Part shown: one piece after another, positions 2,000 to 52,859 of the stretch
Numbering within the stretch: position 1 is the stretch's first letter
Layout: every line of letters starts with the position of its first letter
Source of the DNA: Dehalococcoidia bacterium
GTDB lineage: Bacteria; Chloroflexota; Dehalococcoidia; GIF9; UBA5629
Assembly (NCBI GenBank): GCA_050011565.1
Contig: JBEKIW010000001.1
Location: 677,855 to 741,854 of the forward strand
DNA length: 64,000 nt
Direction: 5' to 3'
Notes under the pieces: generated by a model
What the model was told of the DNA's origin: nothing
Database searches by the model: none
The model's input: the letters and a program-made list of their open reading frames with translations, nothing else
Translations under genes and position numbers: made by a program

Positions 2000-2581
2000 A
2001 TGATATACATTCTAATTGGTATTTGTGGCTTCCTGGTAGCCTATGCCTTTGATTGGGCGAGCCTGGGGAACTTACGAGTAATGAAACAGTTGATTGGCTT
2101 GTTGGCGATCTGTCTTTTGGTCTATGCCACCATCATGGTTTGTGTCATTCCCGTAAAGTTACATCTACCATTTTTTACGCTGCCTTTCGGGGTTGGTCTT
2201 CTAGTGTTTTCCTTATGTCTGCTCGTTTACTCGATGTTTATCGAGATTCCCTTTCACAATACTTATGCCGAGAATGGAGTAAGCAATAAGTTAATAACCA
2301 CCGGAACATATGCCCTGGTTCGCCATCCGGGAGTAATCTGGCTGGCTCTAGTCTATCTCTCCCTGGCACTGCTTTTCCCATCCACCACGCTGTTCCTCGC
2401 TGTCATCGTCTGGTTAATCATGGACATCATCATTGTCACACTACAAGACAAGCTATCATTCCCAAAGATGTTTCCTGCTTACCGCCGGTACCAACTGAAA
2501 ACACCTTTTCTTATTCCTACCAAGCAAAGCATATCAGCGTGCTTAAGAACAATAGACCCCCGAATTAAAGTGAGAAAATGA
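2000..2581 (+). CDS. Isoprenylcysteine carboxyl methyltransferase / PEMT family membrane protein
   Basis: Hydrophobic helices, LITTGTYALVRHP motif and C-terminal F..Y..Y...TP. Confidence 0.8.
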   Translation: MIYILIGICGFLVAYAFDWASLGNLRVMKQLIGLLAICLLVYATIMVCVIPVKLHLPFFTLPFGVGLLVFSLCLLVYSMFIEIPFHNTYAENGVSNKLITTGTYALVRHPGVIWLALVYLSLALLFPSTTLFLAVIVWLIMDIIIVTLQDKLSFPKMFPAYRRYQLKTPFLIPTKQSISACLRTIDPRIKVRK

Positions 2582-3027
2582 TAGAAAAGAAGCGTCTGTG
2601 TTCCCGTCTAAAAATCTACTGTACATGAGAAACGCTTGTGTCAGGTTGTACATAAAGAACGTCAAACCAATTTGGAGTTTGAGCGGACGCCAGAAGTGGC
2701 AGCCATGAGCGAGTTCTCTCCTTACTTTACATAATACTTAGAAATAGGCTTGCACGACCATCCTTTTAAGGAGAAGGGGATACAGGGACGAGGAGGATTG
2801 GCTTTGGATCAGCACCATCTTCTGTTTGACTTCTCTCATAATCTCCATCGCAATGACACTGGCACTCTTGACACCGTCTTCCTTTCACTAAATCATTACA
2901 TCTCGTCTTGAATAATACAACAAATTCTCGTGTTATCTGGGTGAACAAACGCTTGGTTTGTAAAATACCAATAATCATATATGTACCATTGACTTATATT
3001 CTAATTTTAGCTACGATTTAAAGCTGA

Positions 3028-3109
3028 AAGGAGGCAAGCGGTCTCCGCCTTTTGCTTAGCCTGCTTTGGGGCCATGAGGTCGGAGGTTCAAATCCTCTCA
3101 CCCCGACCA
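3028..3109 (+). repeat. Copy 1 of an ~82-bp element: hairpin plus 3' half of tRNA-Pro(TGG) ending in CCA
   Basis: AAGGAGGCAAGCGGTCTCCGCCTTTT...TTTGGGGCCATGAGGTCGGAGGTTCAAATCCTCTCACCCCGACCA; no D-arm or 5' acceptor strand. Confidence 0.85.
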
Positions 3110-3161
3110 GGCAAGTCAGCAAGGGATTTCGCCTTCGAGTCTGCTTTTGAAAGGAGCGCAG

Positions 3162-3632
3162 GTGTATCGTAGAATTATGGTGCCTCTCGATGGCTCTAAA
3201 CTGGCAGAATGTGTTCTTCCCCATATCGAGGCGATAGCGAAATTAAGCCAGGCAAGCATCGAGTTAGTTCACGTGATAGAACCTCTTGAATTACCTACTC
3301 GCGGGGGCATCGCTTTGAGTATCGACGACTTAAAGCAAATCGAGGTACATACCAAAAATGACGCTGAAAGCTATCTCCGTGAAATTGTGGAACGACTAAA
3401 ACTCGCTGGCATAAAGGCTCGTTCAAAAATACTTACTGGAAAAGCTGCTGACAGCCTCATTGACTACATACATAAGAGCAATTTTGACCTTGTCATTATG
3501 GCTACTCACGGCCGCTCCGGGATATCCCGGTGGATCTGGGGAAGCGTAGCTGAAAAGATACTGCACTCTTCCTCGATTCCGGTATTAATAGTGCGGCCTC
3601 CGGAATGTATTCCCGGCTCTAAAACTCGTTAA
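3162..3632 (+). CDS. Universal stress protein (UspA family)
   Basis: YRRIMVPLDGS...DLVIMATHGRSG...WGSVAEKILH; GTG at 3162 follows RBS AAGGAG. Confidence 0.92.
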   Translation: MYRRIMVPLDGSKLAECVLPHIEAIAKLSQASIELVHVIEPLELPTRGGIALSIDDLKQIEVHTKNDAESYLREIVERLKLAGIKARSKILTGKAADSLIDYIHKSNFDLVIMATHGRSGISRWIWGSVAEKILHSSSIPVLIVRPPECIPGSKTR

Positions 3633-3749
3633 CCGCTCCCAAATACAACTAAGGAGACTTCCTGCATCATGGGAGAGGGATTATTTTTATTCATTTACCG
3701 ATAAGAACTCATATAGTGAATCAACGTATTTAATACTGAGGGATACGAC

Positions 3750-4841
3750 ATGGAAATTGTTCCCAATGAGCCAGTACTGTATATGGTTATAGGGCTTTCT
3801 GTCGTTGTGCTATCTGTACTGGTCCTACCCTTCAGAGTCAAAAAGATCGAGCAAAACTTAGAGCCATTCTTTCTGGTAATGGGTGTAATTGCAGTAACCA
3901 TTTCCGGGCTCTGGAACTGGGAACTGGCCAAAGAAGCCCTTAAAGCCCCCGTAATGATTGGTGCCATCCCTGTAGGAATCTTTCAGGTAGTATTGATATT
4001 CGGCCTTCTAGTTCACTACTTCAACAAGGCCTTCTGCAATGGGATTATGTCCCTGGCTAACAAACTCGGGCCAACCACATTTATTGCCTTATTAATAATT
4101 GCGTTAGGGCTTATCTCCAGCGTCGTCTCGGTTATTGTCACAGCTTGTATTCTGTCGGAAGTCATAGCCGCACTTCCATTTAAAAGAAGCGACAAGATAA
4201 AGATAGTGGTAGTTACCTGCTTTGCGATGGGTCTGGGTGCAGGCTTAACCCCTCTGGGTGAACCTCTTTCCACAATCCTGGTTCAAAAGTTAGCCGGGCC
4301 ACCATATAATGCTGGCTTCCTATTCCCGTTTCAAAATCTCGGTATCTACATAATTCCAGGCGTTATAGCTCTAGCTGTTTTCGGAGCCATACTTATTGGC
4401 CGAAAGGTAAATTTAAAGGCAGAGGATATTGAGTCTGAATACAATGAGACTCTTAAAACAGTCATCATCAGAGCAGTTAAAGTTTATATTTTCGTCGCTG
4501 CTCTAATACTGCTCGGTGAAGGTTTAAAGCCATTAATCGTGTGGTATTTCACTAAGATTCCGGCCTGGGCACTGTTCTGGATTAATTCACTGTCAGCAAT
4601 TCTCGATAATGCCACTTTGACCGCAGTGGAGATAGGCCCGACTATGGCTATGCCCCAAATTATCAGCGCTGTTATGGCTCTACTCATTGCCGGAGGCATG
4701 CTGATACCAGGCAATATTCCAAACATAGTAGCCGCTGGGAGACTTAAAATAAAGATGAAGGAATGGGCAATAATCGGAGTGCCTATCGGACTAGCTCTAA
4801 TGATTATCTATTTCGCAGTACTGATACCACTTCTCTTTTGA
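3750..4841 (+). CDS. DUF1646-family predicted cation transporter (IT superfamily)
   Basis: Polytopic membrane protein with NLE.F, GLGAGLTPLGEPLSTI, SAILDNATL and GGMLIPGNIPNI motifs. Confidence 0.8.
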   Translation: MEIVPNEPVLYMVIGLSVVVLSVLVLPFRVKKIEQNLEPFFLVMGVIAVTISGLWNWELAKEALKAPVMIGAIPVGIFQVVLIFGLLVHYFNKAFCNGIMSLANKLGPTTFIALLIIALGLISSVVSVIVTACILSEVIAALPFKRSDKIKIVVVTCFAMGLGAGLTPLGEPLSTILVQKLAGPPYNAGFLFPFQNLGIYIIPGVIALAVFGAILIGRKVNLKAEDIESEYNETLKTVIIRAVKVYIFVAALILLGEGLKPLIVWYFTKIPAWALFWINSLSAILDNATLTAVEIGPTMAMPQIISAVMALLIAGGMLIPGNIPNIVAAGRLKIKMKEWAIIGVPIGLALMIIYFAVLIPLLF

Positions 4842-4945
4842 AAAGGTATAGCGTAATGTTACATTCCGATCACTGTGAAGGAATATTGAAGGATAAATAA
4901 GATTGCGCTATACTCATCTTTGTAGGTGGCAGTAGCAGGGTTTAA

Positions 4946-5884
4946 ATGATGACTAGAATATTTATGTTGTGTCTATTCGCCGTCTTACTAATAGTTGGTG
5001 CTTGTACTACTCCACCGGAGCAAAAGGCCGTGGACGGCGTGACAAGCGGTACAAGCGGTACTAAATATTTCCTTTACGGCGTCTGGGGCAACTCTTCCTC
5101 AGACATCTTCGCCGGGGGATTTAATGGCACCATCCTTCACTACAACGGTAAGACGTGGGGTGCCATGACAAGCGGCACCACAAACGCCATTTATGACATC
5201 TGGGGTAACTCCTCCTCGGACATCTTCGCCGTGGGGAGAGATGGTACCATACTTTATTACGACGGCAAGGCCTGGGGTGCTATGATAAGTGGAACCATAC
5301 AAAACCTTTATGGCACCTGGGGCAGTTCCTCCTCAGACATCTTTGCCGTTGGTAGTGGTGGCACCATCCTTCACTATGGCGGCGAGACTTGGGGCACTAT
5401 GAAAAGCGGCACCGCAAACGCCCTTTATTATATCTGGGGCAGTTCCTCCTCAGATGTCTTCGCCGGGGGATTTAATGGCACCATACTGCATTACGATGGC
5501 AAGGCCTAGGGCACTATGATAAGTGGAACGGTAAATGACCTTTATGGCATCTGGGGTAGTTCCTCCTTAGACGTCTTTGCCGTTGGGAGTGGTGGCACCA
5601 TCCTGCACTACGATGGCAAAGCCTGGTACGCCATGACAAGCGGAACCATAAATGATCTTTGGTGCATCTGGGGTAGCTCCTCCTCAGATGTCTTCGCCGT
5701 GGGATTTAATGGCACCATTCTTGAGTGCGATGGCGACACTTGGAGCGCCATGACAAGCGGCACCACAAACGCCCTTTATTACATCTGGGGTAGCTCCTCC
5801 TTAGATGTCTTCGCCGTGGGGTTTAAAGGCACCATCCTACACTACGACGGTAAGGCCTGGGGCACCATCACAGGCAACAATTAA
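4946..5884 (+). pseudogene. Lipoprotein with seven ~39-aa repeats (probable 7-blade beta-propeller) interrupted by an in-frame TAG
   Basis: ORFs 4946-5509 and 5516-5884 share one frame. TAG at 5507-5509 sits where the other repeats have TGG (GK[AT]W). Lipobox-like LIVGAC; repeat LY.IWGSSSSDVFAVG..GTILHYDG. Confidence 0.8.
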
Positions 5885-5961
5885 CAATAGTCAAAAAGTG
5901 TAGGAGATGTAATCCAAACGATGTTGACTATTCCTTCCCACGTCCATATAATTTGAAACGG

Positions 5962-6044
5962 AAGGAGGCAAGCGATCTCCGCCTTTTTTGTAGCTTGCTT
6001 TGAGACCATGAGGTCGGAGGTTCAAATCATTTCACCCCGGACCA
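5962..6044 (+). repeat. Copy 2 (more degenerate) of the hairpin plus tRNA-Pro 3'-half element
   Basis: AAGGAGGCAAGCGATCTCCGCCTTTTTT...TTTGAGACCATGAGGTCGGAGGTTCAAATCATTTCACCCCGGACCA, a direct repeat of 3028-3109. Confidence 0.85.
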
Positions 6045-6078
6045 TAGATTGTAAGCCTTTCCGTTCATGAACCCACAT

Positions 6079-6366
6079 CTACTGGCAGAAAGGGCACTTC
6101 ACAGAAGAGCCGATTACTGTAGCTTTAACATGTATCCTGCCGTGACGACTGCAGGTGAGCTGATAGTAAGCTCGAACTACTTTAGTGCTGGTATCTTCCA
6201 ATACTGCCGGGGCCGGGAAATAACTCATATTGTAAAACGTCTCTTTTTTCCCATTGCCGTTATATGAGGCGCCACATTTGGGACATTTGGTGGCATCGGG
6301 TAATGCAATGCAACCGCACCTCGAACATTGGATTGTGTCTTTTACTACCTGTACCATTTTGAGCAA
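6079..6366 (-). CDS. Small zinc-ribbon protein
   Basis: CSRC...CPKC and CSRH...CPFC motifs; RBS GGAGG upstream. Confidence 0.65.
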   Translation of the reverse strand: MLKMVQVVKDTIQCSRCGCIALPDATKCPKCGASYNGNGKKETFYNMSYFPAPAVLEDTSTKVVRAYYQLTCSRHGRIHVKATVIGSSVKCPFCQ

Positions 6367-6439
6367 ACCTCCTCCCTTAAAGCAACGACATCAAATTACG
6401 TTCAACACTTGTCCTATCGATGATTTGCGGGCTTAAGCC

Positions 6440-6691
6440 CTACTCGCAAATCCGTCCTAGATACCAGGAATTGGACGCTGTGTCGCGATAAATATCATAA
6501 AGACCTTTGCTGGTCCTGACTCTAAAGTAGTTCTTTAAATTTTCCTGTTCAAAAAGCTGTTCTGATACCCGCCACTGCTGGTATATTCTGTTTACACGCT
6601 CAGCTTTGCCATTCCTGCTGATAGTCAGTGGCGTGCCCTCGATATTAGCGGTTACCCTTAACTCCTCCGGTTTTTCAAGCAGTTTAGCCAT
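6440..6691 (-). CDS. DUF6504-like small protein (resembles the C-terminal domain of ImuB-type proteins)
   Basis: RVNRIYQQWRV...NYFRVRT..GLYDIYRD....WYL pattern; RBS GGAGG; directly downstream of lexA. Confidence 0.65.
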   Translation of the reverse strand: MAKLLEKPEELRVTANIEGTPLTISRNGKAERVNRIYQQWRVSEQLFEQENLKNYFRVRTSKGLYDIYRDTASNSWYLGRICE

Positions 6692-6746
6692 TTCGAACCT
6701 CCGTAATTTATTTTAGTAAAGACAACTATGGCCTCTTATTCTCGAT

Positions 6747-7373
6747 TCATAGTTTTCTGATAACCCCAACGACCTTCCCCTGGACCTCAACATTTTGGGG
6801 ATTGACATAGAGCGGCTTCATACTGGCATTAGACGGCTGAAGGCGAATCATCTCTTTCTCTCGAAAGAGCCTCTTGAGAGTAACTTCCTGCTTGTCTTTT
6901 AGCCAGACAGCAACCATATCGCCATCATCAGCTGTTTGTGCCGCTTCCATTAAGACAATATCACCGTCATCAATTAACGCGTCTACCATAGAAAGGCCTT
7001 TAACTTTCAAGGCATAGACTTCCTTCCCGGTAATCAGATCCTCGGTTAGATCTAATGCCTCTGCGGCATCTTTTTGCCATGTATCTGAATCGGGTACAGG
7101 TATGGGCTCGCCAGCGGCAATGTAGCCTAAAAGCGGCACTCTAACAATATGTTTCCTGTCAAGGAGTTGGATGCTTCTAAAAATCTCCGGGTCCCGATGT
7201 ATGTGGCCTTCTCTTTCCAGTATGTTCAGATGATGTTGAACGACCGCGGTTGAGCTGATATTGCAGCCCTTCAATATATCTCTAACTGTGGGTGCGTAAC
7301 CTATGTCTTCAATAAAAGCGCGGATAAACTTAAATATCCGCTGTCTGGTCTCACTTACACCCGGCTTTCTCAC
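6747..7373 (-). CDS. lexA: SOS repressor LexA
   Basis: wHTH GYAPTVRDI, Ala-Gly cleavage site IAAGEP, catalytic GLSM and TLKR. Confidence 0.97.
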   Translation of the reverse strand: MRKPGVSETRQRIFKFIRAFIEDIGYAPTVRDILKGCNISSTAVVQHHLNILEREGHIHRDPEIFRSIQLLDRKHIVRVPLLGYIAAGEPIPVPDSDTWQKDAAEALDLTEDLITGKEVYALKVKGLSMVDALIDDGDIVLMEAAQTADDGDMVAVWLKDKQEVTLKRLFREKEMIRLQPSNASMKPLYVNPQNVEVQGKVVGVIRKL

Positions 7374-42216: not shown

Positions 42217-42293
42217 GGCGCATTCGTCTAGGGGTTTAGGACGCCGCCCTCTCAAGGCGGAGATCACGGGTTCGAATCCCGTATGCGCTACCA
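42217..42293 (+). tRNA. tRNA-Glu(CTC), integration site
   Basis: GGCGCAT/ATGCGCT acceptor, CCGCC-CT-CTC-AA-GGCGG, GGTTCGAATCCC, CCA. Confidence 0.96.
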
Positions 42294-42353
42294 AACCCCC
42301 TTCGTTAGATTCAATTTTTGTCCTTTATGTCAAATCTGCTAACAATCTGCTAA

Positions 42354-43517
42354 TTACAGGTCCCGCCGCTTCATTATTTCGTCAAATTTTCTGGCCGCTT
42401 CCTCGTCCAGGCCCGGCATGACGTGAGAATAGATATCCGCGGTCACATCAATGCCTGAGTGCCCTAACCTTTCAGATACCACCTTTAAATTAGTGCCGGC
42501 TAAAAGCATTAAGCTGGCATAGGTGTGGCGGGCATCATGCAGGCGGATCCGTTTGACACCGCATTTCTTGATTACCATAGTCCAGGCCCGGGTGACTGTA
42601 TTAGGTCGAAGCGGGCCCCCCTTAGATGTGCAAAATACCAAATCGCTATCGCCTTTTCTCTTGCCAAAAACCGTATCTTCCATTTTCTGAGATTTAAAAT
42701 GCTCTTTAAGAAGCAAAGTCAGAGAGGTTGGTATGGCTATTGACCGCCGGCTTGTCTTTGATTTCGGTTCGGCAAAAATGTACGTGCCCCCTTTGAGCTG
42801 GTGAAGGCCACGACTTATAGCGATACGGCCGTGCTGCAGGTCTATGTCGGTCCATTTCAAGCCCAGGAGCTCGGAGCGGCGCATTCCGGTGTAAAGCGCG
42901 GTGCAAAACGGTACATAATATGGCGTGTCTTTGGCCGCTCCAAGAAACTGGTTTATATCGTCCTGGGTCCAGATTTCCATTTCCTTGCGCATGACCCGAG
43001 GCAGATCAACCTTATCGGCTACGTTTTGATTTAACAGGTCTTTTTTAACCGCTGTCTGCAGCGCCTTATGAATAACCGAATGGTGAAACCGGACCGTATT
43101 AGCTGAATCTTTACCCTGGCCGCGGCCCCTGGCCATGATCATGTCGTAATGCTGTCTTAGGTGCGCCGCCCGGAGCTCGCTTAATTTAACATGGCCGAAT
43201 GCCGGAATAAAATAGGTTTCGATGATCCCCTGGTAACGCTCGAGGCTGCGCTGTGACAGTCTGTTTTTACAATAATCGTCAAGCCATTCCCGGAGATATC
43301 CGGCTACCGTCTTCTTGCCAGAATCAGGAAAACTGCCGCGGTCGATGCGCTGCAGTTCGTCTCTTAACCGGCGCTCAGCGTCTGCCTTTGTGCCGCGGAC
43401 CGTCATCCACTTCTGCCGATATTTGCCGGTGCCCGGGTCCAGCTGGCTAACGATAATGGTATAACTGCCGGCTGCCCGCTTTTTAATGCTGCCGGTGCCC
43501 CTTGCCCGTCTCTTCAT
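42354..43517 (-). CDS. int: Tyrosine integrase (phage/ICE type)
   Basis: Likely start MKRRARGTGSI at 43517; YTGMRRSELLGL, KSK, RLHDARHTYAS, RLGHS..VTADIYSH. Confidence 0.95.
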   Translation of the reverse strand: MKRRARGTGSIKKRAAGSYTIIVSQLDPGTGKYRQKWMTVRGTKADAERRLRDELQRIDRGSFPDSGKKTVAGYLREWLDDYCKNRLSQRSLERYQGIIETYFIPAFGHVKLSELRAAHLRQHYDMIMARGRGQGKDSANTVRFHHSVIHKALQTAVKKDLLNQNVADKVDLPRVMRKEMEIWTQDDINQFLGAAKDTPYYVPFCTALYTGMRRSELLGLKWTDIDLQHGRIAISRGLHQLKGGTYIFAEPKSKTSRRSIAIPTSLTLLLKEHFKSQKMEDTVFGKRKGDSDLVFCTSKGGPLRPNTVTRAWTMVIKKCGVKRIRLHDARHTYASLMLLAGTNLKVVSERLGHSGIDVTADIYSHVMPGLDEEAARKFDEIMKRRDL

Positions 43518-43560
43518 TTCAGTGGCCTGGCCAGCCTTAGTATATCCTTTAACCTTTTGC

Positions 43561-43610
43561 TTGTCGACATTTGACGACAAGTGACGACACTTGACGGCAG
43601 ATGACGGCGA
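43561..43610. repeat. Five tandem 10-bp direct repeats over the int promoter region
   Basis: TTGTCGACAT TTGACGACAA GTGACGACAC TTGACGGCAG ATGACGGCGA. Confidence 0.85.
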
Positions 43611-43614
43611 GTAG

Positions 43615-43881
43615 TTATTTCTCAAGAAATACCTCACTACGGCTTGCTACATCTACTACAGTAGCAGCAGTTCCCATGATTACATCTTTAACTTTTAACC
43701 GGTTGTCTTTCAAGATACCGAAAATATAAGCCGCGGAGCAGCCTAACTCTTCCGCCGCCGGGTCCACACTACCGTGCCTGTTAAGCGCCTCAATAACTTT
43801 TTTGAGCGATATATTCAGCCGGCGGCGCCCTAAACCCTGGACTTTAACCTTTTCGCCGCATTTTGGACATTCAACTTCCAT
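43615..43881 (-). CDS. Small protein with CxxC motif and Fis-like HTH
   Basis: MEVECPKCG...EAL..HGSV..AAEELGCS..YI. Confidence 0.7.
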   Translation of the reverse strand: MEVECPKCGEKVKVQGLGRRRLNISLKKVIEALNRHGSVDPAAEELGCSAAYIFGILKDNRLKVKDVIMGTAATVVDVASRSEVFLEK

Positions 43882-44452
43882 TTTTCTTAACCTTCACTGG
43901 CCTTTTATGTTTTGCTTGCAAAACCCTACGGGAATTGGTTTTTCTTCGCTGGTTATTCTTAGGTGGTTTTTCTTCAATGGTTCTTCTTAGAGGGTCTGTT
44001 TTAAGCCGATTGCGGTACCTGTTTTGAGTTGATTGCCTTACTTGTTTTAAGCCGATTGCGGTACCTGTTTTAAGCTGCGGTACTATTTTAACCTGTGGTA
44101 CTGATATAACCTGCGGTACCTGTTTTAAGTCGCAATATACTGCTTGATTCTTATCCCAAATATCGACAACGCTGATTATGTGGCGAACGTGCCCCCCATT
44201 AACCTCTTTTTTTATCCGAATTAACCTCTTTTTTTTGAGTTCCTGTTTAGCGCGACACACGGTATTTTTATTCATGTGGCATATGTGTGCGAGCCGATCC
44301 TGGCTTTGCCAGCAAGAGCCCCCCTCATCTTCCCCACAGACTCTTCTGAGATGTGCATAAAGACGAAAGCCGGCAGGTGTCAGCTTCATGTCATCGACAA
44401 GATGCGGGACCTGTGTAAAGTAGCTATGGTGTCCGTTATTTTGGTCCGTCAT
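43871..44452 (-). CDS. Replication initiator-like wHTH protein with internal iterons
   Basis: FTQVP.......L....FRLY..L......CW.SQ.RLA....M..NTV.RA..EL....LI; repeated GCGGTACCTGTTTT at 43997-44130. Confidence 0.75.
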   Translation of the reverse strand: MTDQNNGHHSYFTQVPHLVDDMKLTPAGFRLYAHLRRVCGEDEGGSCWQSQDRLAHICHMNKNTVCRAKQELKKKRLIRIKKEVNGGHVRHIISVVDIWDKNQAVYCDLKQVPQVISVPQVKIVPQLKTGTAIGLKQVRQSTQNRYRNRLKTDPLRRTIEEKPPKNNQRRKTNSRRVLQAKHKRPVKVKKNGS

Positions 44453-44651
44453 ACCCGGATCCCTCAGTCTGGTTTAAAAACTTTGTAAGTTTATCCCGCG
44501 GCACCAGGATGCGCCGGCCGAGGCGCTTCACCGGCAACTTGCCTTCCCTGATATATTTGAACGCCGTTGACTTGCCAATCCCCAAAGCCGCAGCTGCCTC
44601 TTCAACGGAAAGCACCAGGCGGTCAGTATTGATATCGGTTTTATTAACCAC
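44436..44651 (-). CDS. Excisionase-family HTH_17 DNA-binding protein
   Basis: LSVEEAAAALGIGKSTAFKYIREGKLPVKRLGRRILVP. Confidence 0.88.
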   Translation of the reverse strand: MVNKTDINTDRLVLSVEEAAAALGIGKSTAFKYIREGKLPVKRLGRRILVPRDKLTKFLNQTEGSGYDGPK

Positions 44652-44813
44652 CTAGGGTATTCCTTTTCTTCATGTCTCGCCCGCTGCTACCTGCAGCGTC
44701 CAGGAAGGATATATTGATTTCCTCTAAGCTAACCGAGCTGCGCCTTAAAAGCTCGCTTGCTGTATATTTTCCTGCCATCATGCTTTTCACCCGCTCAAAA
44801 ACATTCCTGACGA

Positions 44814-45116
44814 TTATTCTTTGGCTTTACCCAGGCCCCCCCCTACCCCACGGTCCGCCACTGCCGGCGTCGGGTCAAGTATAGGTTCGATTTTGCCGTG
44901 TATCCTGGCCGATTCCTCACGTTCAAACGATACATACTGCCTTTTCAATGGTCGAATTTGAATAGAAACGCTTTGACCCAGAAACTGTCTCAAGTAAAAA
45001 TCAGCCGGCAGGACCTCAGTTTGCCCCTCGAGACGAAAACCTTCCGCGGTAACCTCGCCCCGGTATACAACTGAGCCGCGCTCTAGAATATCTTTTGCCG
45101 TGTTCCCTGCCGCCAT
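44814..45116 (-). CDS. Hypothetical protein
   Basis: 100-aa ORF co-oriented with neighbouring element genes. Confidence 0.45.
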   Translation of the reverse strand: MAAGNTAKDILERGSVVYRGEVTAEGFRLEGQTEVLPADFYLRQFLGQSVSIQIRPLKRQYVSFEREESARIHGKIEPILDPTPAVADRGVGGGLGKAKE

Positions 45117-45217
45117 ACTTTCTTAGTGCCTCAGACCTTAGTCTCTACAAAAATGATTATTCCCTTTAATCCGCTGGCTTCTTACGGCCGTTGGTGGACC
45201 TTAACAGCCCCGGGTTA

Positions 45218-45790
45218 TCACTTCAGATTTGATAAAATCTCATTTTCCTGATTCGCGATCATAACGAGCAATCCCTGGGAAACATAAGGGATATCTATCG
45301 GCTCTGCGGTCGCGCCTTCAACAAATGAGTACACAGCCTGTTTATCTTTTAAAATCTCGAGGTTAGCACCGATGAGAGCTCCCGGCGCATCCGGAGCAAA
45401 CATTCTCTTCGCTCCATTCTTTAATCTCAAATATTCGGCAGTATAGAAAGCCAGCCGCGGATAACCGTCTATCATATCTCTCAGGTCTTCATCCCCCACC
45501 ACGTCACTATAGGATTTATAGATTTTACCTTCCAAATAAGTCCCCACTTTAACGACCCATCGCATTTTTGAAGGTGGTATTTGTTCTAGCCACATGAGAG
45601 TATGAATGGCATGTATTTTTTCAAGAGTGTCTTTAGGGTAATATGCGTGCGCACCTTTCCCGGCACCTTGAGAAACAGGCTGGTCGATGAGCTCCTCTTT
45701 AGCATAATTTATCATCGTTACATTGGTAATTGCCCTATTCACCTTGCTCAACTGAGAAATAATCTCTTTGCGGCTGATTAGGTCGTTCAT
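45218..45790 (-). CDS. MerR-like HTH-containing regulator (hypothetical)
   Basis: T..T...Y.KE.LI..P...G.G.G....YP...L..I pattern; RBS AAGGAG; consensus promoter upstream. Confidence 0.6.
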   Translation of the reverse strand: MNDLISRKEIISQLSKVNRAITNVTMINYAKEELIDQPVSQGAGKGAHAYYPKDTLEKIHAIHTLMWLEQIPPSKMRWVVKVGTYLEGKIYKSYSDVVGDEDLRDMIDGYPRLAFYTAEYLRLKNGAKRMFAPDAPGALIGANLEILKDKQAVYSFVEGATAEPIDIPYVSQGLLVMIANQENEILSNLK

Positions 45791-45819
45791 TTTGAGCTCC
45801 TTATATAAATCATTACTTT

Positions 45820-45848
45820 ATTATAAACCCGCACTTTATACTTGTCAA
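45820..45848 (-). promoter_or_regulatory. Consensus sigma70 promoter
   Basis: TTGACA-17bp-TATAAT on the minus strand. Confidence 0.8.
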
Positions 45849-45999
45849 TAGAGGCGTACCAGAAATTTAAAGCTAATGAGCTGCCGGAGCAGAAAAAATT
45901 TGTCAACTTCGCTAGTTCAGAGCCGGGTAGTGTATTATTTTGAAATCTGATATCATTGAAAACACTAATGTGTTAAACCTCGAGCGGAGTTAGAATGCT

Positions 46000-46287
46000 A
46001 TGGACAAAACATATACTGAATCCGAATTACGAGATAAGTTAAGCCGAAAGACAGAACGGATAACTGAAGGATTGATTGGTCGTTTAAGGGATGATGGACT
46101 TTTAAATGACCGCCATTTCAGGGTACAAAGTAAAATTGAGCCAAATGGTTCCATAACAATAGATGGTGAACCTATCCGACAAAGCGTTCAGGAATTCGTT
46201 CACGTTCTATTAGTAGAATTTTTGAAAGAACTCCTTGTCGCCCTTTTCGAAGAAGATGGTAACTCGGACATACCCTTTCATAATTAA
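46000..46287 (+). CDS. Hypothetical protein (the only plus-strand gene called in the element)
   Basis: 95-aa ORF with GGAG RBS, divergent from the regulator. Confidence 0.55.
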   Translation: MDKTYTESELRDKLSRKTERITEGLIGRLRDDGLLNDRHFRVQSKIEPNGSITIDGEPIRQSVQEFVHVLLVEFLKELLVALFEEDGNSDIPFHN

Positions 46288-46565
46288 CTATCCTTCAATG
46301 TGTTTAGCCGTTATATTGGCTGATTACCGGGGTTTGGCAAGCCAGCCAGCGCCGGCAAAGGTGTTGAAGCCGTTTATTGCTAAAACCAAGCCCCTACGAT
46401 GCGATTTCTGAGGCATCCAGGCTTTTACCCGCCTAATTCCCCATAAGACCACCCGGCAATGGAGAGGCTGCCAATTACCTCTCCAAAGCCAGGGGCTTAA
46501 GCGAGTATATCAAGGCCCGAAGGCCGTTGATACCTTCCCCTGGTCAATTATTTCTCAGGAAATAC

Positions 46566-46871
46566 CTAAGCATCGCGGTTTAAGTCCAGGAGGCCCCCTT
46601 TGCCCTTTTTGACAGCCGGCTTCCCGATAAACGCGGCACAGCATTTTTCAATAAACTCTGCCACTGAAATACCCTCTTTGTCGGCTTGTTGTTGGCAGGC
46701 AATAAATAGCTGCTGTTTATTTTTAAATGTTTTGGATTCGCCTCGCTTGGCAAAATATGCCTCGACACAATCGGCCACAAAGCGGGCGAGTTTTTGCCCT
46801 CTCTTTATCGCCTCTAATTCGCATTGTGAATAGAGGCCGAAATTGTTAAAAAAAATAATATCTTTTATCAT
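46566..46871 (-). CDS. Hypothetical protein, possible tandem ribbon-helix-helix
   Basis: Two similar halves: A...G..LARFV..C and A..EGISVAEFI..C. Confidence 0.5.
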   Translation of the reverse strand: MIKDIIFFNNFGLYSQCELEAIKRGQKLARFVADCVEAYFAKRGESKTFKNKQQLFIACQQQADKEGISVAEFIEKCCAAFIGKPAVKKGKGGLLDLNRDA

Positions 46872-46908
46872 GCTGGTTTATCCAGGAACCGCCCAGGGCC
46901 ACTCCACC

Positions 46909-47068
46909 CCGGGCGGTCCCCCATGCGAAACGTATATCAACACCAGAGCGAATTGGTGGTGATACCGAAGTTCGAGGGCCGCCCGGATAGAACTCAGACT
47001 AAAGCTCCGGGCGGTCCCCATGCTGAACGGATATATCAACGCCAGGAGTTGGCGGTGATACCGAAGTT
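46909..47068. repeat. Two ~62-bp direct repeats, each containing a hairpin, just downstream of the capsid gene
   Basis: CCGGGCGGTCCCC..ATGC...TATATCAAC[AG]CCAG...TTGG[TC]GGTGATACCGAAGTT at 46909-46972 and 47007-47068. Confidence 0.85.
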
Positions 47069-48266
47069 AAGCGCTATGCTCGGTCAGAAGCACCAGGGCT
47101 TTATTGGACGGTTTAATAAGGTATCCGCCTACCCTTCGATACACTATGAAACCCACTAACCCGGCCTCAGCATAGAGCTCATTAAGCCGTAGTATGGTTA
47201 TCTCCGAGCGATCGAGTATGCGGTAGCCATACTGGAAGTTGCCGAAGACCGCGATCACACCCTGGGTACCGGTCAGGTCTTCCATGTCATCCTGGTTATA
47301 CACAGGGTAGCCAAGGAATGTAGGCGGGGCACCGGCTATTAGAGACGGCTGCCAGAGGTAATTTCCGTAGTAACCGTCTGCTACCTCGGCCCGCAGCTTA
47401 CGGATCTCTAATTCTAACGTAGAGTTAAAAACCCAGGCTGAGCCCTGCCGGTACTTGGGCGGGACTTCATAGATGCACTGTAGAAAGTCATCGATAGTCA
47501 CCACCCCATCATCTGCAGTGGCCTTAGTGGCCGCCACCAGAGTCGGGTCTACGGTTATGCCGTCAGGTTCGTTTTCACTATGCCCCCTACCTTTGAGGAA
47601 GCCATAGTTTTCCTTTTCAGCTATTGCCCGGCCAAAGGAATCGGACATAAAGTTAACCAGGTCATAGTCTGAGTCTTCGAGCTCATCTCTGCCTACCTTA
47701 ACGAGCCCGGAGAGGTCCTCGATGTATTTGTAATCCTCCGAGGGCGCGGGCGTGGCTTCGGTGATTGCAGCTCCGGTTTCGAGCTTACCCCAGTTCACTT
47801 CGGCCTCGGTTATGTCACGCACCAGTATTCGGTCCTTAGTAATCGTGCGTTGGCTGGCGAGCTGGCGGACTACTACAAATTTAGCCAAGCTTCGCTGCAG
47901 TTCCTCTTCGATAGCCGGCGAGACCAGGTAGCCGCCGGTAGAATCCTCTACAAGCGCCCTTTCCTCGTCCTGAGTGATGCCGGTTTTCCCTTTGCGTATG
48001 TAGTTTAGGAAAGCTCGGTCCTCATCGGCGAGATAGATGCCTTTTCCACCTCTTCCACCACCGGGTGCGGTAGCCATTTCCAGGCTGTTCTGCATTTTTC
48101 CCTTGTCTATGCGAACAGTCAGGTCATCGACCTCAGCTATTAGGTTTTTGTATTCCGTGTCCTCACCTTCAGACATGCCCCTATGCTCTGCATTGTCAAG
48201 AAGCTCACGAGCTTTTGCAAGAAGCTCCGTTCTTTTCCTTTGCATTGCTGGAATATTTTGTAACAC
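47067..48266 (-). CDS. HK97-family major capsid protein
   Basis: Coiled-coil delta domain, RAF..YIR.G, GGYLV, F.KG.G....PDGI, GNYLWQP, T.LGYPV, FGNF..GY.I.DR, GLVGF...RRVGG; RBS AAGGAGG. Confidence 0.93.
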   Translation of the reverse strand: MLQNIPAMQRKRTELLAKARELLDNAEHRGMSEGEDTEYKNLIAEVDDLTVRIDKGKMQNSLEMATAPGGGRGGKGIYLADEDRAFLNYIRKGKTGITQDEERALVEDSTGGYLVSPAIEEELQRSLAKFVVVRQLASQRTITKDRILVRDITEAEVNWGKLETGAAITEATPAPSEDYKYIEDLSGLVKVGRDELEDSDYDLVNFMSDSFGRAIAEKENYGFLKGRGHSENEPDGITVDPTLVAATKATADDGVVTIDDFLQCIYEVPPKYRQGSAWVFNSTLELEIRKLRAEVADGYYGNYLWQPSLIAGAPPTFLGYPVYNQDDMEDLTGTQGVIAVFGNFQYGYRILDRSEITILRLNELYAEAGLVGFIVYRRVGGYLIKPSNKALVLLTEHSA

Positions 48267-48536
48267 TTTGATACCTCCTTAGTTTTTAAACAAAAGTTTT
48301 CACTCGCCTGAGCCACTGTTAGCTCAAGAGCTCCCCTTGAGACCAATTCCTCAGCCTCAAGACAAACCCCCACGCTCCCAAAGGAATCAAGCTCGTCTGC
48401 CGGCAACCAATTCGACCTGGCTCCGGCCTTATTAAGTTAGTGCCCGAGGAGTACAGAACGGCTTGAACAATATCATGGAAAAAAAGAGCCGCCTGCCTAT
48501 TCAGGGCATTTATTCGGACAGACTCCTATCAAATAT

Positions 48537-48692
48537 TCACCTTGATTTTCTCGATCTTCTTTCCTTAACAAGCTTTTTATAAGCCTGAAGAACAGCTGAT
48601 AACCCACCATGCCGCGATTGTCTGTACGTTCCGTTAAGAATATGTTGCTCAATGGACTTTTTGTTGCTTCCTCCCGAACCAGGTCCCCCCAT
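48537..48692 (-). CDS. 51-aa ORF resembling the N-terminus of P27-family (HK97-type) terminase small subunits
   Basis: Manual translation MGGPGSGGSNKKSIEQHILNGTYRQSRHGGLSAVLQAYKKLVKERRSRKSR*, with RBS AAAGGAGGT; below the ORF-track cutoff. Confidence 0.6.
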   Translation of the reverse strand: MGGPGSGGSNKKSIEQHILNGTYRQSRHGGLSAVLQAYKKLVKERRSRKSR

Positions 48693-48884
48693 TTAATTTA
48701 CCTCCTTTTCTGGTTTTGCTGCCCACGGTTTTGCTGCCCATGGTCAAATCGGGTTTTTTTGTCCGAATTAACCGGAAAATCAGCCAGCAAAAGTTTTGCT
48801 AACTGCTTTATTTCCCCAGTTTTTGAAGCTAAATTACCCATTTTGCCACCATATATTAATTTCTATCTTCATGATTTATCTTCC

Positions 48885-48966
48885 TGTTTTGCTGGCTGTG
48901 TGTGCGCGAAACTGCCCACTCGGTTCTGAAGCTTTGAAGCTGCAGCGATTTGATGGGGCTATCCCT
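48885..48966 (-). other. Putative cos packaging region
   Basis: Minus strand GGGATAGCCCCATCAAATCGCTGCAGC...AGAACCGAGTGGGCAGTTTCGCGCACAC...GCAAAA resembles the GGG..AAATC.CT...ACCG...CGCG pattern recalled upstream of terS in HK97-like cos phages. Confidence 0.5.
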
Positions 48967-49004
48967 GGTCAAATTATTTCTTGAGAAATACCTTACGATC
49001 CTAA

Positions 49005-49124
49005 TTACCTGGCCGGCCGTGTTCTCCGTCTTTTTATCTTCGGCCTCTCCGGCAGTTCAGAGTATAGCCAGCCACAAAGAACCAGACACCAGATTAAGAA
49101 ACAGAATATAACTATTATTTCCAT
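49005..49124 (-). CDS. 39-aa single-TM peptide with basic tail
   Basis: MEIIVIFCFLIWCLVLCGWLYSELPERPKIKRRRTRPAR*; RBS AAGGAAGG. Confidence 0.45.
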   Translation of the reverse strand: MEIIVIFCFLIWCLVLCGWLYSELPERPKIKRRRTRPAR

Positions 49125-49150
49125 AAGTCACCTTCCTTTGCTGACAGTCT

Positions 49151-50299
49151 TTAGACATAAGATTTCCTTAACTGTTGCAGGCGATAAAGTTCTTTGGCTA
49201 TTCGCTGGACGTCGGCCTCTTCCCTGACTATCAGTTGAGAAACGGTAATATTAACTCCGGAGCCGCCGGCCGGTGATATAACTTCACCACCATGGACCAT
49301 TGCAAGTTGAGGCTCCCCGATTGAGCCGGGGACTATACCGCCGGATTGATAACCCTGAAGATGAGCTAGATAATTCTGCTGGCTAATCTCGGCCTGGCTC
49401 ATGCCACCAGTGGAAACCGCTCCACCGCTTTCAGAACCTGGACTTGCCCACAATTGGCTGAGTCCACCAGTAAACCATGATGGCATATTCAAGATTTTCG
49501 ACAAATCCAGACGGCTTAATGTACTATTCAGTTTATTCATCCAATCGACAGCTTGCTTAATATAGCCTACAAGCGTAGCCAGGTCTCCAATGAAGGATGT
49601 CAGACTAGGGAAAACGGTCGCTGCAAGTGCACCAGTTAATCCCTGCCAGGCGGTGTGGAGGTCTTCAGTAGCCCCTTTGGTATCTGCAAGAGCAGTTACT
49701 TGAGCATCGCTGAGAATTCCTAACTCGTGTAACCTGCTAATATAGGTGTCCAAGTTACCTATCATAGGTAGCAATTCTGTACCGGAACGCCCAAAAATCT
49801 CCATGGCCAAAGCGGCGCGTTGAGTTGGGTCAGGAATATTATTTAATGCCCGAGCAATCGCTTTGAATTGGCTTTCCGGGTCCATTTGTTGCAGGTCATT
49901 GAAGGATAATCCTAATTGCTGGAATGTTCTTACAGCTGTCACCGAACCATTCTCTGCATCAAGCAAAACCCTGGCGAATTGCTGCATCCCTACTCGCACC
50001 TGGTCAAGAGATGAGCCCCCTTTTTCTGCCGCGTAGCCTAGTTCCTGAAGTGCCTGAGTAGACATACCGGTGCGTATGGCTGTATTTGTAAGGTCCTCGC
50101 CCAGGTTCATAAGATTAGACGCGATTGCCCCCATGCCTGCTACAACAGCAGCCATGCTCATTTCGGGTAGAAGCCCCCCTAATAAAGAATTCAGCTTGCC
50201 AATAGAACTTTGGGCTGAGGACTGCAGGTCCTTCATGCCTTGCTGAAATTCTTCAGTTTTGGCGCCTATGACAACAAAAAGTTTGCTTAATTCGTTCAT
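49151..50299 (-). CDS. Short phage tail tape-measure-like protein (382 aa)
   Basis: N-terminal L.V.IGA....F..G; core TGMST.ALQEL.YAA and D...RAALAMEIFGRSG.ELLP; C-terminal Y.SGGIVPG..G.P.LA.VHGGE...REEADV..IA. Confidence 0.85.
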   Translation of the reverse strand: MNELSKLFVVIGAKTEEFQQGMKDLQSSAQSSIGKLNSLLGGLLPEMSMAAVVAGMGAIASNLMNLGEDLTNTAIRTGMSTQALQELGYAAEKGGSSLDQVRVGMQQFARVLLDAENGSVTAVRTFQQLGLSFNDLQQMDPESQFKAIARALNNIPDPTQRAALAMEIFGRSGTELLPMIGNLDTYISRLHELGILSDAQVTALADTKGATEDLHTAWQGLTGALAATVFPSLTSFIGDLATLVGYIKQAVDWMNKLNSTLSRLDLSKILNMPSWFTGGLSQLWASPGSESGGAVSTGGMSQAEISQQNYLAHLQGYQSGGIVPGSIGEPQLAMVHGGEVISPAGGSGVNITVSQLIVREEADVQRIAKELYRLQQLRKSYV

Positions 50300-50574
50300 T
50301 TAATTCCCCTTTCCTTTTTAAAAAGGCGGAAGGCTTTCTTTAGCCCTTTTACTACTTCGCGGTAATGTGAAATAAGAAGCTTCTTTGCTTCTTTAATGGT
50401 CAATGCCGGATCATCCTGGACAAGCCCTCCCCATAACAAAACAACGGCATGATATGGCAGACTTGATATTTCAGGCTTCAATTTAATGCCGGTTGTCTCT
50501 TCAAATAGACCCAAGGTTATAAGATTGAGGCGGAAGCGCCGTTTTTTGTCCAGTTTCATTGTAACTTCTGCCAC
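50296..50574 (-). CDS. Phage tail assembly chaperone-like protein
   Basis: KLDK.R..RL....L..FEE.TG...LLWGGL...DP.LT......L; stop overlaps the tape-measure start (ATGA). Confidence 0.7.
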   Translation of the reverse strand: MAEVTMKLDKKRRFRLNLITLGLFEETTGIKLKPEISSLPYHAVVLLWGGLVQDDPALTIKEAKKLLISHYREVVKGLKKAFRLFKKERGIK

Positions 50575-50637
50575 TTTTAAATCTCCTCAAGGCGGCCTGT
50601 TTGACCGCCCCTAATTATTTCTCAAAAAATATCTTGG

Positions 50638-50907
50638 TTACAATTGCCGGTTTATCGCTTTGGCCACGCCGTAGACATGCTGCCCCTTTAAACTGTCAGA
50701 ACCAGTAAATTTTAGTAGCCCTGGCTTTTTTGTAGCCAGCTCGTTAACAAACAAAGTGTCCCCGGCTTTCGGCGCCGCTGCCGGGTCGAAAACAACGATA
50801 TCGCCCTCAAATAAAACAGGTTCCGCGCAATGCCCTACACATCTGACGGCAATTAGTGAATGGCCATCTGCCAGGTCTGCCGGTATGAAAGTGGTCCCTA
50901 TAGTCAT
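50638..50907 (-). CDS. Stand-alone S24 (LexA/UmuD/CI C-terminal) peptidase-like domain
   Basis: AVRCVGHCAEP.L.EGDIVV.DP...P..GD...V......LK...YGV; no HTH. Confidence 0.65.
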   Translation of the reverse strand: MTIGTTFIPADLADGHSLIAVRCVGHCAEPVLFEGDIVVFDPAAAPKAGDTLFVNELATKKPGLLKFTGSDSLKGQHVYGVAKAINRQL

Positions 50908-51011
50908 GTTCCCCCCTTGCTAATTAAGTTGCTAATATACTGCAAAACACTAGATAGCACAGCGAAGTTTTGAATACTACAGAAGCGTATGTAGGTTTTA
51001 CTGGTCTAGGT

Positions 51012-52859
51012 TCAAATCCCTAGAATCCCGTATGCGCTACCATTCATAACTTTTCGGCACTTAGTTGCTAACTCACATTCCTCATCGGCTTGTGATTTAC
51101 TTAATTGCACCTTATCACTTTGGATATCTGATTGCACCTGACCAAGATTTAGCTGGCAGCTTACCCTCATAGTCTTGAGATCTTCGGAGGGATAAACCTT
51201 GATGCCCAGCTTGGAGATAACGTCCAGTCGCTCTTCGAAGGTGGCTCCATCGAGATTGCTATCCCTCAGTACCTTCAATTCCTCTCTTAATGCCTCCAAG
51301 TCGGTGCAACCAGAGACCGAGTCCTCTAGTTCTTCTCTGAGTCGTTTAATCTCTTTTTCCGCTTTGGCTATCGTCGCCCGGTGTTCGTCGATACGCATCT
51401 TGGCTTCGTACCGGTTGTACAGTCCACCCTCGAAGCCCTCTTGAACCTTAGTAATTCTGGCCTCCGCCTGTGATGTCTTCAGCAACTGAAGTCTGAGTAG
51501 CTTTTCCACATTCTCGTCCTGCAATAGTTCCGTGGAGAGCTGTTGCTCAACCCAGGCATCAGTCCTAAGCCACGAGCAAATGTCCTGCCATACCAGTTGA
51601 TCCCATGTGCCAGGGACGAATTTCCTGTAATTGCAGGGGTGCTCAACCCAAGGCTTGAAGTATCGGGAACAGTAGTAGTAGACACCATTCAGGTGGCCCG
51701 CACGTCTAACCACCATTGGCTGGCAACACCTGGGGCAATATATGCGATTGCGAAGTAAGGCCTGGATTGTCTTCCCCTGCTTACCTCTTCCCCTTCCCCT
51801 CTGGGCAATAGTAGCGTTGGCCTTTTGCCATAGTTCTTCACTCACCAAGGTTGGAACTTTGAATTCTACCCAATCATCCTTGGGTTTAGGTCTGAGAAGG
51901 GTCCTCTTAATCTCTGCAGTTATGTCAACTAGAGGTCTATCGGGATTTGGCACTCTGGCATTGGCGTTATAATAGTGAGTCCCTGTGTAGCAGTGATGAC
52001 GGACGATGGCAGAAACCCCGGCAGGCGACCATTTGCCACCATCTGGGGCCTTGATACCCATCTCATTCAGTTTGTTGGCCACCCAGAAGAGGCTGAGTCC
52101 TTCACTGCCAACCCAGGTAAAGATCTGAATCACAACCCAGGCTGGACTCGGATAAATGAGTTGACCGTCAGGATCAGACTCGTCAAGTTCCCACCAGGCA
52201 CGCTTGATGATAACCTTGCCGTCAGGGGCTATCTCCCTGTCTGCCTTGTAGCGATAACCGTAAGCGGCGCGGCTTGCCGGCACCATGCCTTTGAGTACCC
52301 TTCCTATGTTGCCCGCCCTGGCGCTGTCTCTGTTTGTTTGGACCCTGAGAGCATTGGCCTTAGCCATGATCAGGCGGCTGGTGCTACTGGCCCAATCCGC
52401 TCCACTAGGCACATCGCCGAAGACAAACTCCACACCATAGTGCGTGCATTCCCTCTCGAAGATAAGCTGCTGTCCCGGATCCATTGTCAGCCGTCCCTGC
52501 AAAGGTATCAGCACTCCCTGAATCCTACGCTTGGCTATTAACTCCTTCCTGAGGAACGCCATATTTTTCCGGTCAAGGTATTCGCTGCTCTCATGGTCAA
52601 CAACAATATATTCCTGCGGCACGGTTAAGGCTCTCTGCTTCGCCATGCGTGCGCAGGTAAGCAGATACTCAGGTATGCGATTGTTTTGCGCCTGCTCCAC
52701 CAAGCTCTGCCGGACGTAAGCCGCCCACCAGGTAGGCTTCATAAGGTCACAGCTTTTGACGCCGAAACCATCCTCATACCCTGCTGCCTTGGCTGCTTCG
52801 TCGATGTAACCATCCAACTGATCTCGGCTCATAACCTCTGTCTCTTTGTCATGCTTCAT
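51012..52859 (-). CDS. Large serine recombinase (resolvase + recombinase + zinc ribbon + coiled coil)
   Basis: AAYVRQS, GRL, AAYGY, Y.G, P.LVSEELW, LL...IYCPRC...YYYC. Confidence 0.92.
   Translation of the reverse strand: MKHDKETEVMSRDQLDGYIDEAAKAAGYEDGFGVKSCDLMKPTWWAAYVRQSLVEQAQNNRIPEYLLTCARMAKQRALTVPQEYIVVDHESSEYLDRKNMAFLRKELIAKRRIQGVLIPLQGRLTMDPGQQLIFERECTHYGVEFVFGDVPSGADWASSTSRLIMAKANALRVQTNRDSARAGNIGRVLKGMVPASRAAYGYRYKADREIAPDGKVIIKRAWWELDESDPDGQLIYPSPAWVVIQIFTWVGSEGLSLFWVANKLNEMGIKAPDGGKWSPAGVSAIVRHHCYTGTHYYNANARVPNPDRPLVDITAEIKRTLLRPKPKDDWVEFKVPTLVSEELWQKANATIAQRGRGRGKQGKTIQALLRNRIYCPRCCQPMVVRRAGHLNGVYYYCSRYFKPWVEHPCNYRKFVPGTWDQLVWQDICSWLRTDAWVEQQLSTELLQDENVEKLLRLQLLKTSQAEARITKVQEGFEGGLYNRYEAKMRIDEHRATIAKAEKEIKRLREELEDSVSGCTDLEALREELKVLRDSNLDGATFEERLDVISKLGIKVYPSEDLKTMRVSCQLNLGQVQSDIQSDKVQLSKSQADEECELATKCRKVMNGSAYGILGI

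Follow-up and report, generated by a model that had tools for sequence, protein, structure and literature searches.

A candidate cos-type packaging module with a 51-residue small-terminase stub in a satellite-like island of a peat Dehalococcoidia bacterium

Does the block at 48537-48966 of this DNA hold the packaging signal of a phage satellite, and is the open reading frame (ORF) of only 51 amino acids (aa) beside it a working piece of a small terminase (TerS) or a leftover of one? The window analysed, a stretch of 64,000 nt (positions 677,855 to 741,854 of contig JBEKIW010000001.1, assembly GCA_050011565.1), belongs to a Dehalococcoidia bacterium whose genome measures 2.0 Mb and is 99% complete. 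The sequencing runs carrying this stretch are peat metagenomes, with no RNA run among those listed. An earlier note, made from the letters alone, had proposed a hidden packaging module here, with a region resembling the cos of HK97-like phages followed, in a satellite, by a truncated TerS that could redirect or jam the packaging of a helper. Based on the evidence presented below, we estimate a probability of roughly 60% that the block is the packaging module of an 8.75-kb cos-type phage satellite at a tRNA-Glu gene, made up of a captured cos and a TerS-arm stub and packaged by a helper. Since a cos copy and a 51-residue stub TerS stand together, the island is most likely a parasite packed into helper phage particles.

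The 51-aa ORF reads as the earlier note had quoted it, and the strong ribosome-binding site is there as well: a Shine-Dalgarno (SD) sequence, AAGGAGG, lies at 48707-48701, 8 nt before the ATG. A phmmer search against 1.84 billion representative proteins (threshold E <= 1e-3) gave 33 matches besides the query; 31 of these measure 106-280 aa, and the other two are short, at 53 and 74 aa. In 30 of these 33 relatives the match begins within the first 6 residues of the hit protein. PF05119 was found in 21 at E <= 0.01, with 17 above the curated cut-off, and TIGR01558 ('P27 family') was matched by nine of ten full-length relatives tested. The alignment of this N-terminal arm contains 10 invariant and 4 near-invariant columns, all in the first 28 residues, and the stub keeps 14 of the 14. 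It fits the consensus MGGxGSGGxNKKS..GTYRxDRHG, which is found in a subset of P27-family members, and a hidden Markov model (HMM) of 27 arms, with the query left out, scores it at 70.8 bits. The GT[YF]R.DRH motif, which the earlier note had named as N-terminal in P27-family small terminases, is therefore real, and residues 1 to ~45 of the stub are homologous to the arm ahead of the PF05119/TIGR01558 domain in many members.

The remainder of the protein is missing, as had been claimed for the oligomerisation body. Neither PF05119 (Terminase_4) nor TIGR01558 (sm_term_P27) matches the stub peptide, and tblastn with the 33 relatives recovered no remnant of the core in any frame of the island; only the arm was matched, at one place. 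The gene following the stub is the capsid gene, not a large terminase (TerL) gene. Pfam, PHROGs and NCBIfam offer no family for the stub, nor for the 47-aa and 39-aa ORFs that the earlier note had rightly placed in the same block. For the stub this silence is explained by the P27 models of these libraries, which begin only after the arm, namely after residue 41-157 in the relatives. Judged from its sequence, the stub is a P27-family TerS arm without the oligomerisation body. Its AlphaFold model (pLDDT 73, the model's own confidence measure), with helices at residues 14-20, 25-28 and 31-49, begins with a flexible, Gly-rich segment and continues with two short helices and a long basic one. Neither Foldseek with this model against the PDB nor a PDB sequence search with a full-length relative gave a match, and a word-index protein search returned the query alone among proteins of 28-90 aa and none among longer proteins.

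Next to the stub lies the second half of the module. In viral contigs L022, L023, L025 and L026, a conserved non-coding element of ~110 nt is located upstream of terS, and the window can be aligned with it from the G-rich box over AAATC.CT.CAGC, GAACCGAG.GG.CAG, TTCGCG and CAGCAAAA to the SD region. An nhmmer profile of these four HNH-terS intergenic regions, with the window excluded, was searched against the whole 2.0-Mb genome and yielded one significant match, at 48978-48870 of the window (E 2.1e-6, 27.1 bits). The next-best match (E = 2, contig C6) falls in a pyruvate-dehydrogenase operon and was rejected as chance. The spacing agrees too: counted from the box's first base, CAGCAAAA follows after 57 nt in L022, L023, L025 and the window and after 56 nt in L026. 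Hence, the resemblance to cos that had been suggested holds for the HNH-terS element of phages with arm-type TerS; for HK97 itself it is weak, at 14 of 16 bases, which was equalled by 16 of 500 shuffles in a narrow and 53 of 300 in a wider comparison. A 9-mer common to HK97 cos and the island (ACCCGATTT), spotted by eye, does not exceed chance expectation and was discarded. On the strength of this alignment, 48978-48870 is a copy of the cos of an HK97-like phage group, and its homology to metagenomic phages suggests that it may be helper-compatible.

The surroundings of the element in phages also point to a cos. A loose pattern, AATCTCTACAG-N12-17-AAACCG, occurs in 36 viral contigs, and in 20 of them an ORF of at least 60 aa ends no more than 120 nt upstream. 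HNH endonucleases account for 16 of the 18 tested ORFs ending just upstream of the box, two 62-aa ORFs having been left out as apparent chance matches inside genes. Downstream of the pattern, several kinds of terminase genes are found; one of these TerS proteins resembles HK97 gp1 by eye and is matched by PF05119, and its contig begins 4 nt before the box. HK97 itself has the same HNH-cos-terS layout, with the HNH gene before the genome end and terS after it. Upstream of the island cos, no relative of an HNH gene was detected in the island or the genome, as would be expected if a helper supplies the HNH protein.

To locate the cut, contig ends were counted at 80 viral arm-type terS loci. Twenty have a contig end less than 200 nt upstream of the ATG, and 11 of these contigs start with CAGCAAAA (at most one mismatch) at position 19 (n = 10) or 20 (n = 1); some of the 11 are close relatives, from separate assemblies. 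We read this pile-up as physical genome ends lying 38-39 nt after the box, as in HK97, where a like box begins 39 nt ahead of the mapped right genome end. Given that 11 of 20 phage contigs end 18-19 nt before CAGCAAAA, the island would by analogy be cut near 48912, and CAGCAAAA would be the TerS site. The same 110-nt element might instead be a late-operon promoter or leader, kept before terS in phages and borrowed by the island to time its expression: the first late gene lies downstream of it, a candidate operator immediately precedes it in the island and, as Rfam has no family on it, it could by name be a leader RNA. This explanation is highly improbable, as it does not account for the ends that gather at a single base in 11 of the 20 contigs, 18-19 nt ahead of the motif, nor for a geometry that equals the experimentally mapped end and TerS site of HK97 (PMC11331095), nor for a place between an HNH gene and terS, where cos is located in the known cos phages that depend on HNH.

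The putative TerS site is repeated in both phages and island. Of the 80 arm-type terS genes, 23 have an exact CAGCAAAA in the 200 nt upstream, where its density (1.66/kb) is 11-fold that elsewhere in the loci (0.15/kb). L021, L022, L023 and L025 have a single copy at -33 to -83 plus two or three at +106 to +256, the latter being inside terS, just behind the arm-coding part. No other copy is present in the 6-11 kb examined of L021, L023 and L025, and L022 (12.1 kb) has one extra copy on the opposite strand at -4078. In the island, 182 nt hold three of the four exact CAGCAAAAC sites of the 64-kb window and two one-mismatch copies, at -202, about -100 (the inverted pair), -44 and -29 relative to the stub ATG. 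A tandem pair with the same 15-nt period is also seen in phage L023, and the last island site is at a phage-like distance ahead of the SD and ATG.

In the 47-aa ORF, the ATG is found 44 nt downstream of the first CAGCAAAAC site, a place that corresponds to the start of terS in the phages. Counted from this ATG, the tandem pair comes after 105 nt, compared with 106 nt in three phages. The ORF was considered as a decayed first copy of the arm, an idea rejected for lack of any arm signal in its DNA or protein. The layout of the sites looks like the outcome of unequal exchange between them. A search of viral contigs for the tandem CAGCAAAAC pattern gave at least 118 matches, mostly unrelated, with no arm or cos among 80 examined. 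As a separate observation, a 20-nt sequence (TTTTTTTRTCCGAATTAACC) occurs with 19 of 20 bases identical at 44207-44226, in the iteron-rich part of the replication gene, and at 48754-48773, in the cos-stub spacer.

The features of the island are listed in Table 1.

Table 1. Annotated features of the island and of its packaging block, with positions in the window
Feature	Position	Strand	Remarks
attL	42274..42293	.	20-nt direct repeat = 3' end of tRNA-Glu(ctc) 42217-42293
Tyrosine integrase	42354..43637	-	PF00589 1.7e-27; phrog_1 5e-81
Replication initiator (HTH_36)	43871..44452	-	Pfam and replication-initiator PHROGs; iterons TGCGGTACCTGTTTTAAG, 5 copies, within the gene (repeat families D2-D4)
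Excisionase-type HTH_17 protein	44436..44651	-	PF12728 5e-13
95-aa ORF	46000-46287	+	Sole named island gene off the minus strand
Tandem Arc-like protein	46566-46871	-	Between the capsid gene and two ORFs annotated without function
HK97-type major capsid protein	47067..48266	-	TIGR01554 3e-68; PF05065; own SD AAGGAGG 48279-48273, GTG start
51-aa stub small terminase	48537..48692	-	P27-family TerS N-terminal arm, then basic helix; without ring-forming core
47-aa ORF	48698..48841	-	Probably non-coding spacer; overlies repeated CAGCAAAAC sites
Two tandem CAGCAAAAC sites	48713..48736	-	48736-48728 and 48721-48713, period 15 nt; 44 and 29 nt before stub ATG
Inverted pair of one-mismatch CAGCAAAAC sites	48785..48801	.	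AGCAAAAC-TTTTGCT
cos element	48870..48978	-	Homologous to phage HNH-terS intergenic region; AAATC box starts 48951; first CAGCAAAAC site 48894-48886
17-nt palindrome TATTTCTCAAGAAATAA	48974..48990	.	Repeat family D1; other copies 43615-43631, 46548-46564, 50615-50631
39-aa ORF	49005..49124	-	Hydrophobic stretch and basic tail
Tail tape measure protein, 382 aa	49151..50299	-	phrog_9483 3e-24; full length versus 444-aa phage homologue
Probable tail assembly chaperone, 92 aa	50296..50574	-	26% identity, E 2e-7, to ORF directly before phage L028 tape measure gene
attR	51023..51042	.	Second copy of 20-nt tRNA-Glu end

A perfect 20-nt direct repeat (family D8, 100% identical) frames the island, and the second copy of the tRNA-Glu end delimits it to ~42294-51042, or 8.75 kb. 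Read from attR to attL, the genes are an 89-aa S24-like fragment, the chaperone, the tape measure, the 39-aa ORF, the cos/stub region and the capsid, followed by the tandem Arc-like protein, two ORFs without assigned function, the excisionase, the replication initiator, an 88-aa ORF and the integrase. With its integrase and att repeats, a replication module of its own with iterons and an incomplete set of virion genes, the island shares the features of satellites like the phage-inducible chromosomal islands (PICIs), in agreement with the satellite nature proposed for it earlier. The scanned island ORFs include no recognisable gene for TerL, portal, protease, HNH, a major tail protein or lysis. 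The 89-aa ORF (50638-50907) is weakly (E 0.027) like the C-terminal S24 peptidase part of LexA/CI repressors, without their DNA-binding domain, and shows, by eye, GHCAEP at the place expected for the catalytic Ser motif. Just beyond the island, a large serine recombinase gene (51012-52859) overlaps the attR copy of the tRNA end with its final codons; contigs with 29-32 differences over 349-370 nt point to a second, diverged copy in the same metagenomes.

Within the island, a 17-nt palindrome (TATTTCTYRAGAAATAA), embedded in the conserved AAGGTATTTCT..AGAAATAATT, precedes a gene block at each of its four sites. The eight strand matches, corresponding to these four sites, compare with 0.15 expected, and all are located within the island when the whole 64-kb window is searched. 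Its probable role is that of an operator bound by a regulator of the island, for which the tandem Arc-like protein may be a candidate.

The virion genes have their relatives in the same phage group. The capsid protein is 42% identical to its counterpart in G445 (the L023 phage) and 44% to that in G440, and the tape measure protein is 42% identical to that in G444 (the L022 phage), 33% in G443 and 32% in G447. Both ends of the tape measure match a 444-aa phage protein (56% and 70% identity), so it is not a fragment; the open frames around tape measure matches in the phage group vary from 359 to 779 aa. One could regard the 8.75-kb block as the rubble of an HK97-like prophage, in which cos, stub, capsid and tape measure are chance survivors, given that its pieces have their homologues in one phage group, an S24-like fragment sits at the attR end, the genome holds no helper and the contigs show no excision signal. 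Such decay is improbable, however. The larger ORFs are all intact, on one strand and tightly packed, with SDs where checked, the att repeats are identical and the tape measure is full length. Moreover, the island genes do not follow the order of the phage map, and the 17-nt palindrome, specific to the island, is found before four gene blocks and nowhere else in 64 kb. As the integrase/replication block is placed between the capsid and tail chaperone genes, deletions alone cannot derive the island order (chaperone-tape measure-cos-stub-capsid-regulators-replication-integrase) from the phage order of cos-terS-terL-portal-protease-capsid-...-tape measure.

Taking the island as a cos-type satellite, the following course of events can be proposed. 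In the phage group concerned, an HNH gene is followed by cos and this by a P27-family terS, whose product begins with MGGxGSGGxNKKS..GTYRxDRHG. Of this arrangement, the island still has the AAATC box, the predicted cut region and, 18 nt past the cut, a CAGCAAAAC site, to which four more copies have been added. Upon infection by such a phage, the island might be excised by its integrase and excisionase and replicated from its initiator and iterons. The helper's TerS, TerL and HNH proteins would then cut the island DNA at the island cos and pack it into heads that the island's own capsid protein either helps to build or reshapes. With odds a little better than even, the stub would be made and would act at the CAGCAAAAC sites or on the helper terminase, so biasing packaging.

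Several observations weigh against this picture. No helper is apparent in the genome, which has no PF05119, PF03354 or second PF05065 and no relatives of 14 phage HNH proteins or of the L022 TerL and portal. The depth of the island equals that of its flanks (13.2 versus 12.8-14.8; 40.4 versus 39.4-41.4), and an excision joint was not seen in three peat metagenomes, although these were contigs only, which cannot show ends. The island box departs from 2 of 13 core bases, and the cos lies 193 nt from the stub ATG versus 25-83 nt in phages, which means that the region has been rearranged. With the stub as query, tblastn of 50,697 GenBank phage records gave no match at E <= 10, and a search of 400 further genomes of the class did not turn up the arm. 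A related island with a lone capsid gene (L005) has neither an arm nor a match to the cos profile in the 7.5 kb examined. Finally, arm-type TerS proteins are long wherever they were read in context: 80 of 80 viral loci are full length (ORFs of 156-280 aa), a further seven of seven have ORFs of 156-280 aa or the arm heading a 622-aa putative TerL, and both genome loci are full length (142 and 159 aa). A second island with a stub TerS was not found among these loci, and since the age of the truncation cannot be set, the conserved residues and the SD may simply be inherited.

Some further relatives were noted. The L005 island (268-6773 of a metagenome contig) is tRNA-adjacent, encodes an integrase and Cro-like, excisionase-like and AAA_25 proteins, and has a lone capsid gene whose product is 62% identical to the island capsid. 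The capsid protein was not found in 60 relatives, a scan of genome contigs with the capsid gave none, and a search of viral contigs with the replication initiator gave nothing. Low-depth peat contigs match the island up to 48874, 48044 and 49030 and then diverge into other sequence; these could belong to sister elements or to phages that have part of the module in common with the island. In viral contig L024 (2286-4154), an arm start (MGGPGSGGHNKKS) is fused to the N-terminus of the 622-aa protein, which is large-terminase-like by eye. In L035 (1610-7991), from a metagenome-assembled genome of Deltaproteobacteria, a serine recombinase and several ORFs of no known function share a small block with a gene for a 159-aa arm-type TerS, which an HK97 capsid gene follows immediately, neither TerL nor portal lying between the two. 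L035 may be a satellite showing the untruncated state of terS.

Is the stub then active? Within the well-supported frame of a cos satellite, the sequence gives roughly even odds for this. One tentative reading, which we consider possible without favouring it, is that the stub works as a stand-alone recognition arm that occupies the CAGCAAAAC sites or caps the helper TerS, to the advantage of the island's own five-site cos. The alternative, to which we would give about the same limited credence, is that cos is or was used for packaging and the stub is an inconsequential 5' end of terS, captured together with cos or cut by a deletion. In the phages, the CAGCAAAA sites straddle the arm-coding part, so that capture of a working cos would tend to bring the arm along; every readable relative is full length, the stub SD and ATG are homologous to the phage SD and ATG, and the TerS of L035, directly before its capsid gene, looks like the state before truncation. 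In the island, however, all five sites lie upstream of the ORF, so there is no visible need for the ORF at the DNA level, which argues for a function. Likewise, the 14 conserved arm positions, the consensus SD and a clean stop have been kept while the core has vanished from every frame, and the stretch from the first site to the tandem pair, which codes for the arm in phages, carries no arm signal here. As for the conservation of the short length on which the earlier note had placed weight, two short proteins (53 and 74 aa) exist in the library, whereas all relatives readable in their loci are long. All 87 viral relatives examined are full length, which goes halfway towards an outcome that the earlier note had named as refuting its proposal, namely full-length relatives of which the stub is a recent truncation. 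By this comparison, the stub may be a working piece or a leftover.

Cos-stealing satellites are known from a few cultured hosts. If the island is what we propose, such satellites would extend to uncultured Dehalococcoidia from peat, with an unusual kit of capsid, tail chaperone, tape measure and terminase stub, and it would be the first Dehalococcoidia satellite also bringing its own capsid and tape measure proteins. In the literature outside subscription journals, we found no published satellite with a truncated TerS and no tailed-phage satellite in Dehalococcoidia. The analysis also provides a testable map of cos common to many metagenomic HK97-like phages, consisting of the box, a cut 38-39 nt later and CAGCAAAA at +19, which links the arm, the most conserved part of TerS, to a conserved DNA motif. 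Were the stub a relic, it would mark the capture of cos sites together with the start of terS.

When compared to SaPIbov5 and its Ccm, as described by Carpena et al. (2016; PMC5052747), the island is likewise small, integrated, without a terminase of its own and equipped with a copy of a helper cos. Both have a lone homologue of the HK97-fold capsid protein with an N-terminal delta-like part, and as for SaPIbov5, the helper of the island would be an HNH-dependent cos phage. On the other hand, the two come from different phyla and have no sequence relationship, the island is smaller (8.75 kb), and a tail chaperone, a tape measure and a stub TerS are not described for SaPIbov5 in that article. 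By gene content, the island can also be likened to the EPIPs of Mycolicibacterium (Qian et al. 2025, preprint; PMC12822802), which, according to that preprint, are ~10 kb elements with small terminase, capsid and tape measure genes and without the remaining virion genes. The preprint calls tape measure genes in satellites unusual. The EPIPs possess a complete TerS, a serine integrase and genes for a head-tail adaptor and a stopper, whereas the island combines a tyrosine integrase and a replication initiator of its own with no more than the arm of TerS; no adaptor or stopper gene was recognised in it.

At the level of the packaging signal, HK97 is the reference. According to Chechik et al. (2024; PMC11331095), HK97 TerS binds an A-tract site spanning +15 to +29 and extends its N-terminal arm into the DNA. 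The HK97 cos and the island-type cos share a G-rich run and an AAATCT box ~39 nt before the cut, with HNH upstream and terS downstream. Direct sequence likeness is weak, HK97 gp1 has no Pfam match, and the suggestion that the arm reads the site is transferred from HK97 by analogy. With the P27 family, the stub shares the arm; the domain that defines the family is missing, and no TerL gene follows.

Interference with the helper's small terminase is itself a known strategy. Ppi of the Staphylococcus aureus pathogenicity islands (SaPIs) is a small satellite protein that retargets or blocks it, and Ppi and Rpp are unrelated proteins that bind TerS. Rpp, encoded by PICIs of Gram-negative bacteria, is likewise described as a small satellite protein retargeting or blocking the helper small terminase (Fillol-Salom et al. 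2019; PMC6739421). In contrast to both, the candidate in the island is a piece of TerS itself. Should the stub be active, the satellite would be reusing a fragment of its helper's own recognition protein, and, if it acts as a stand-alone arm, a terminase piece would serve as the hijacking factor, a principle of packaging interference not described so far.

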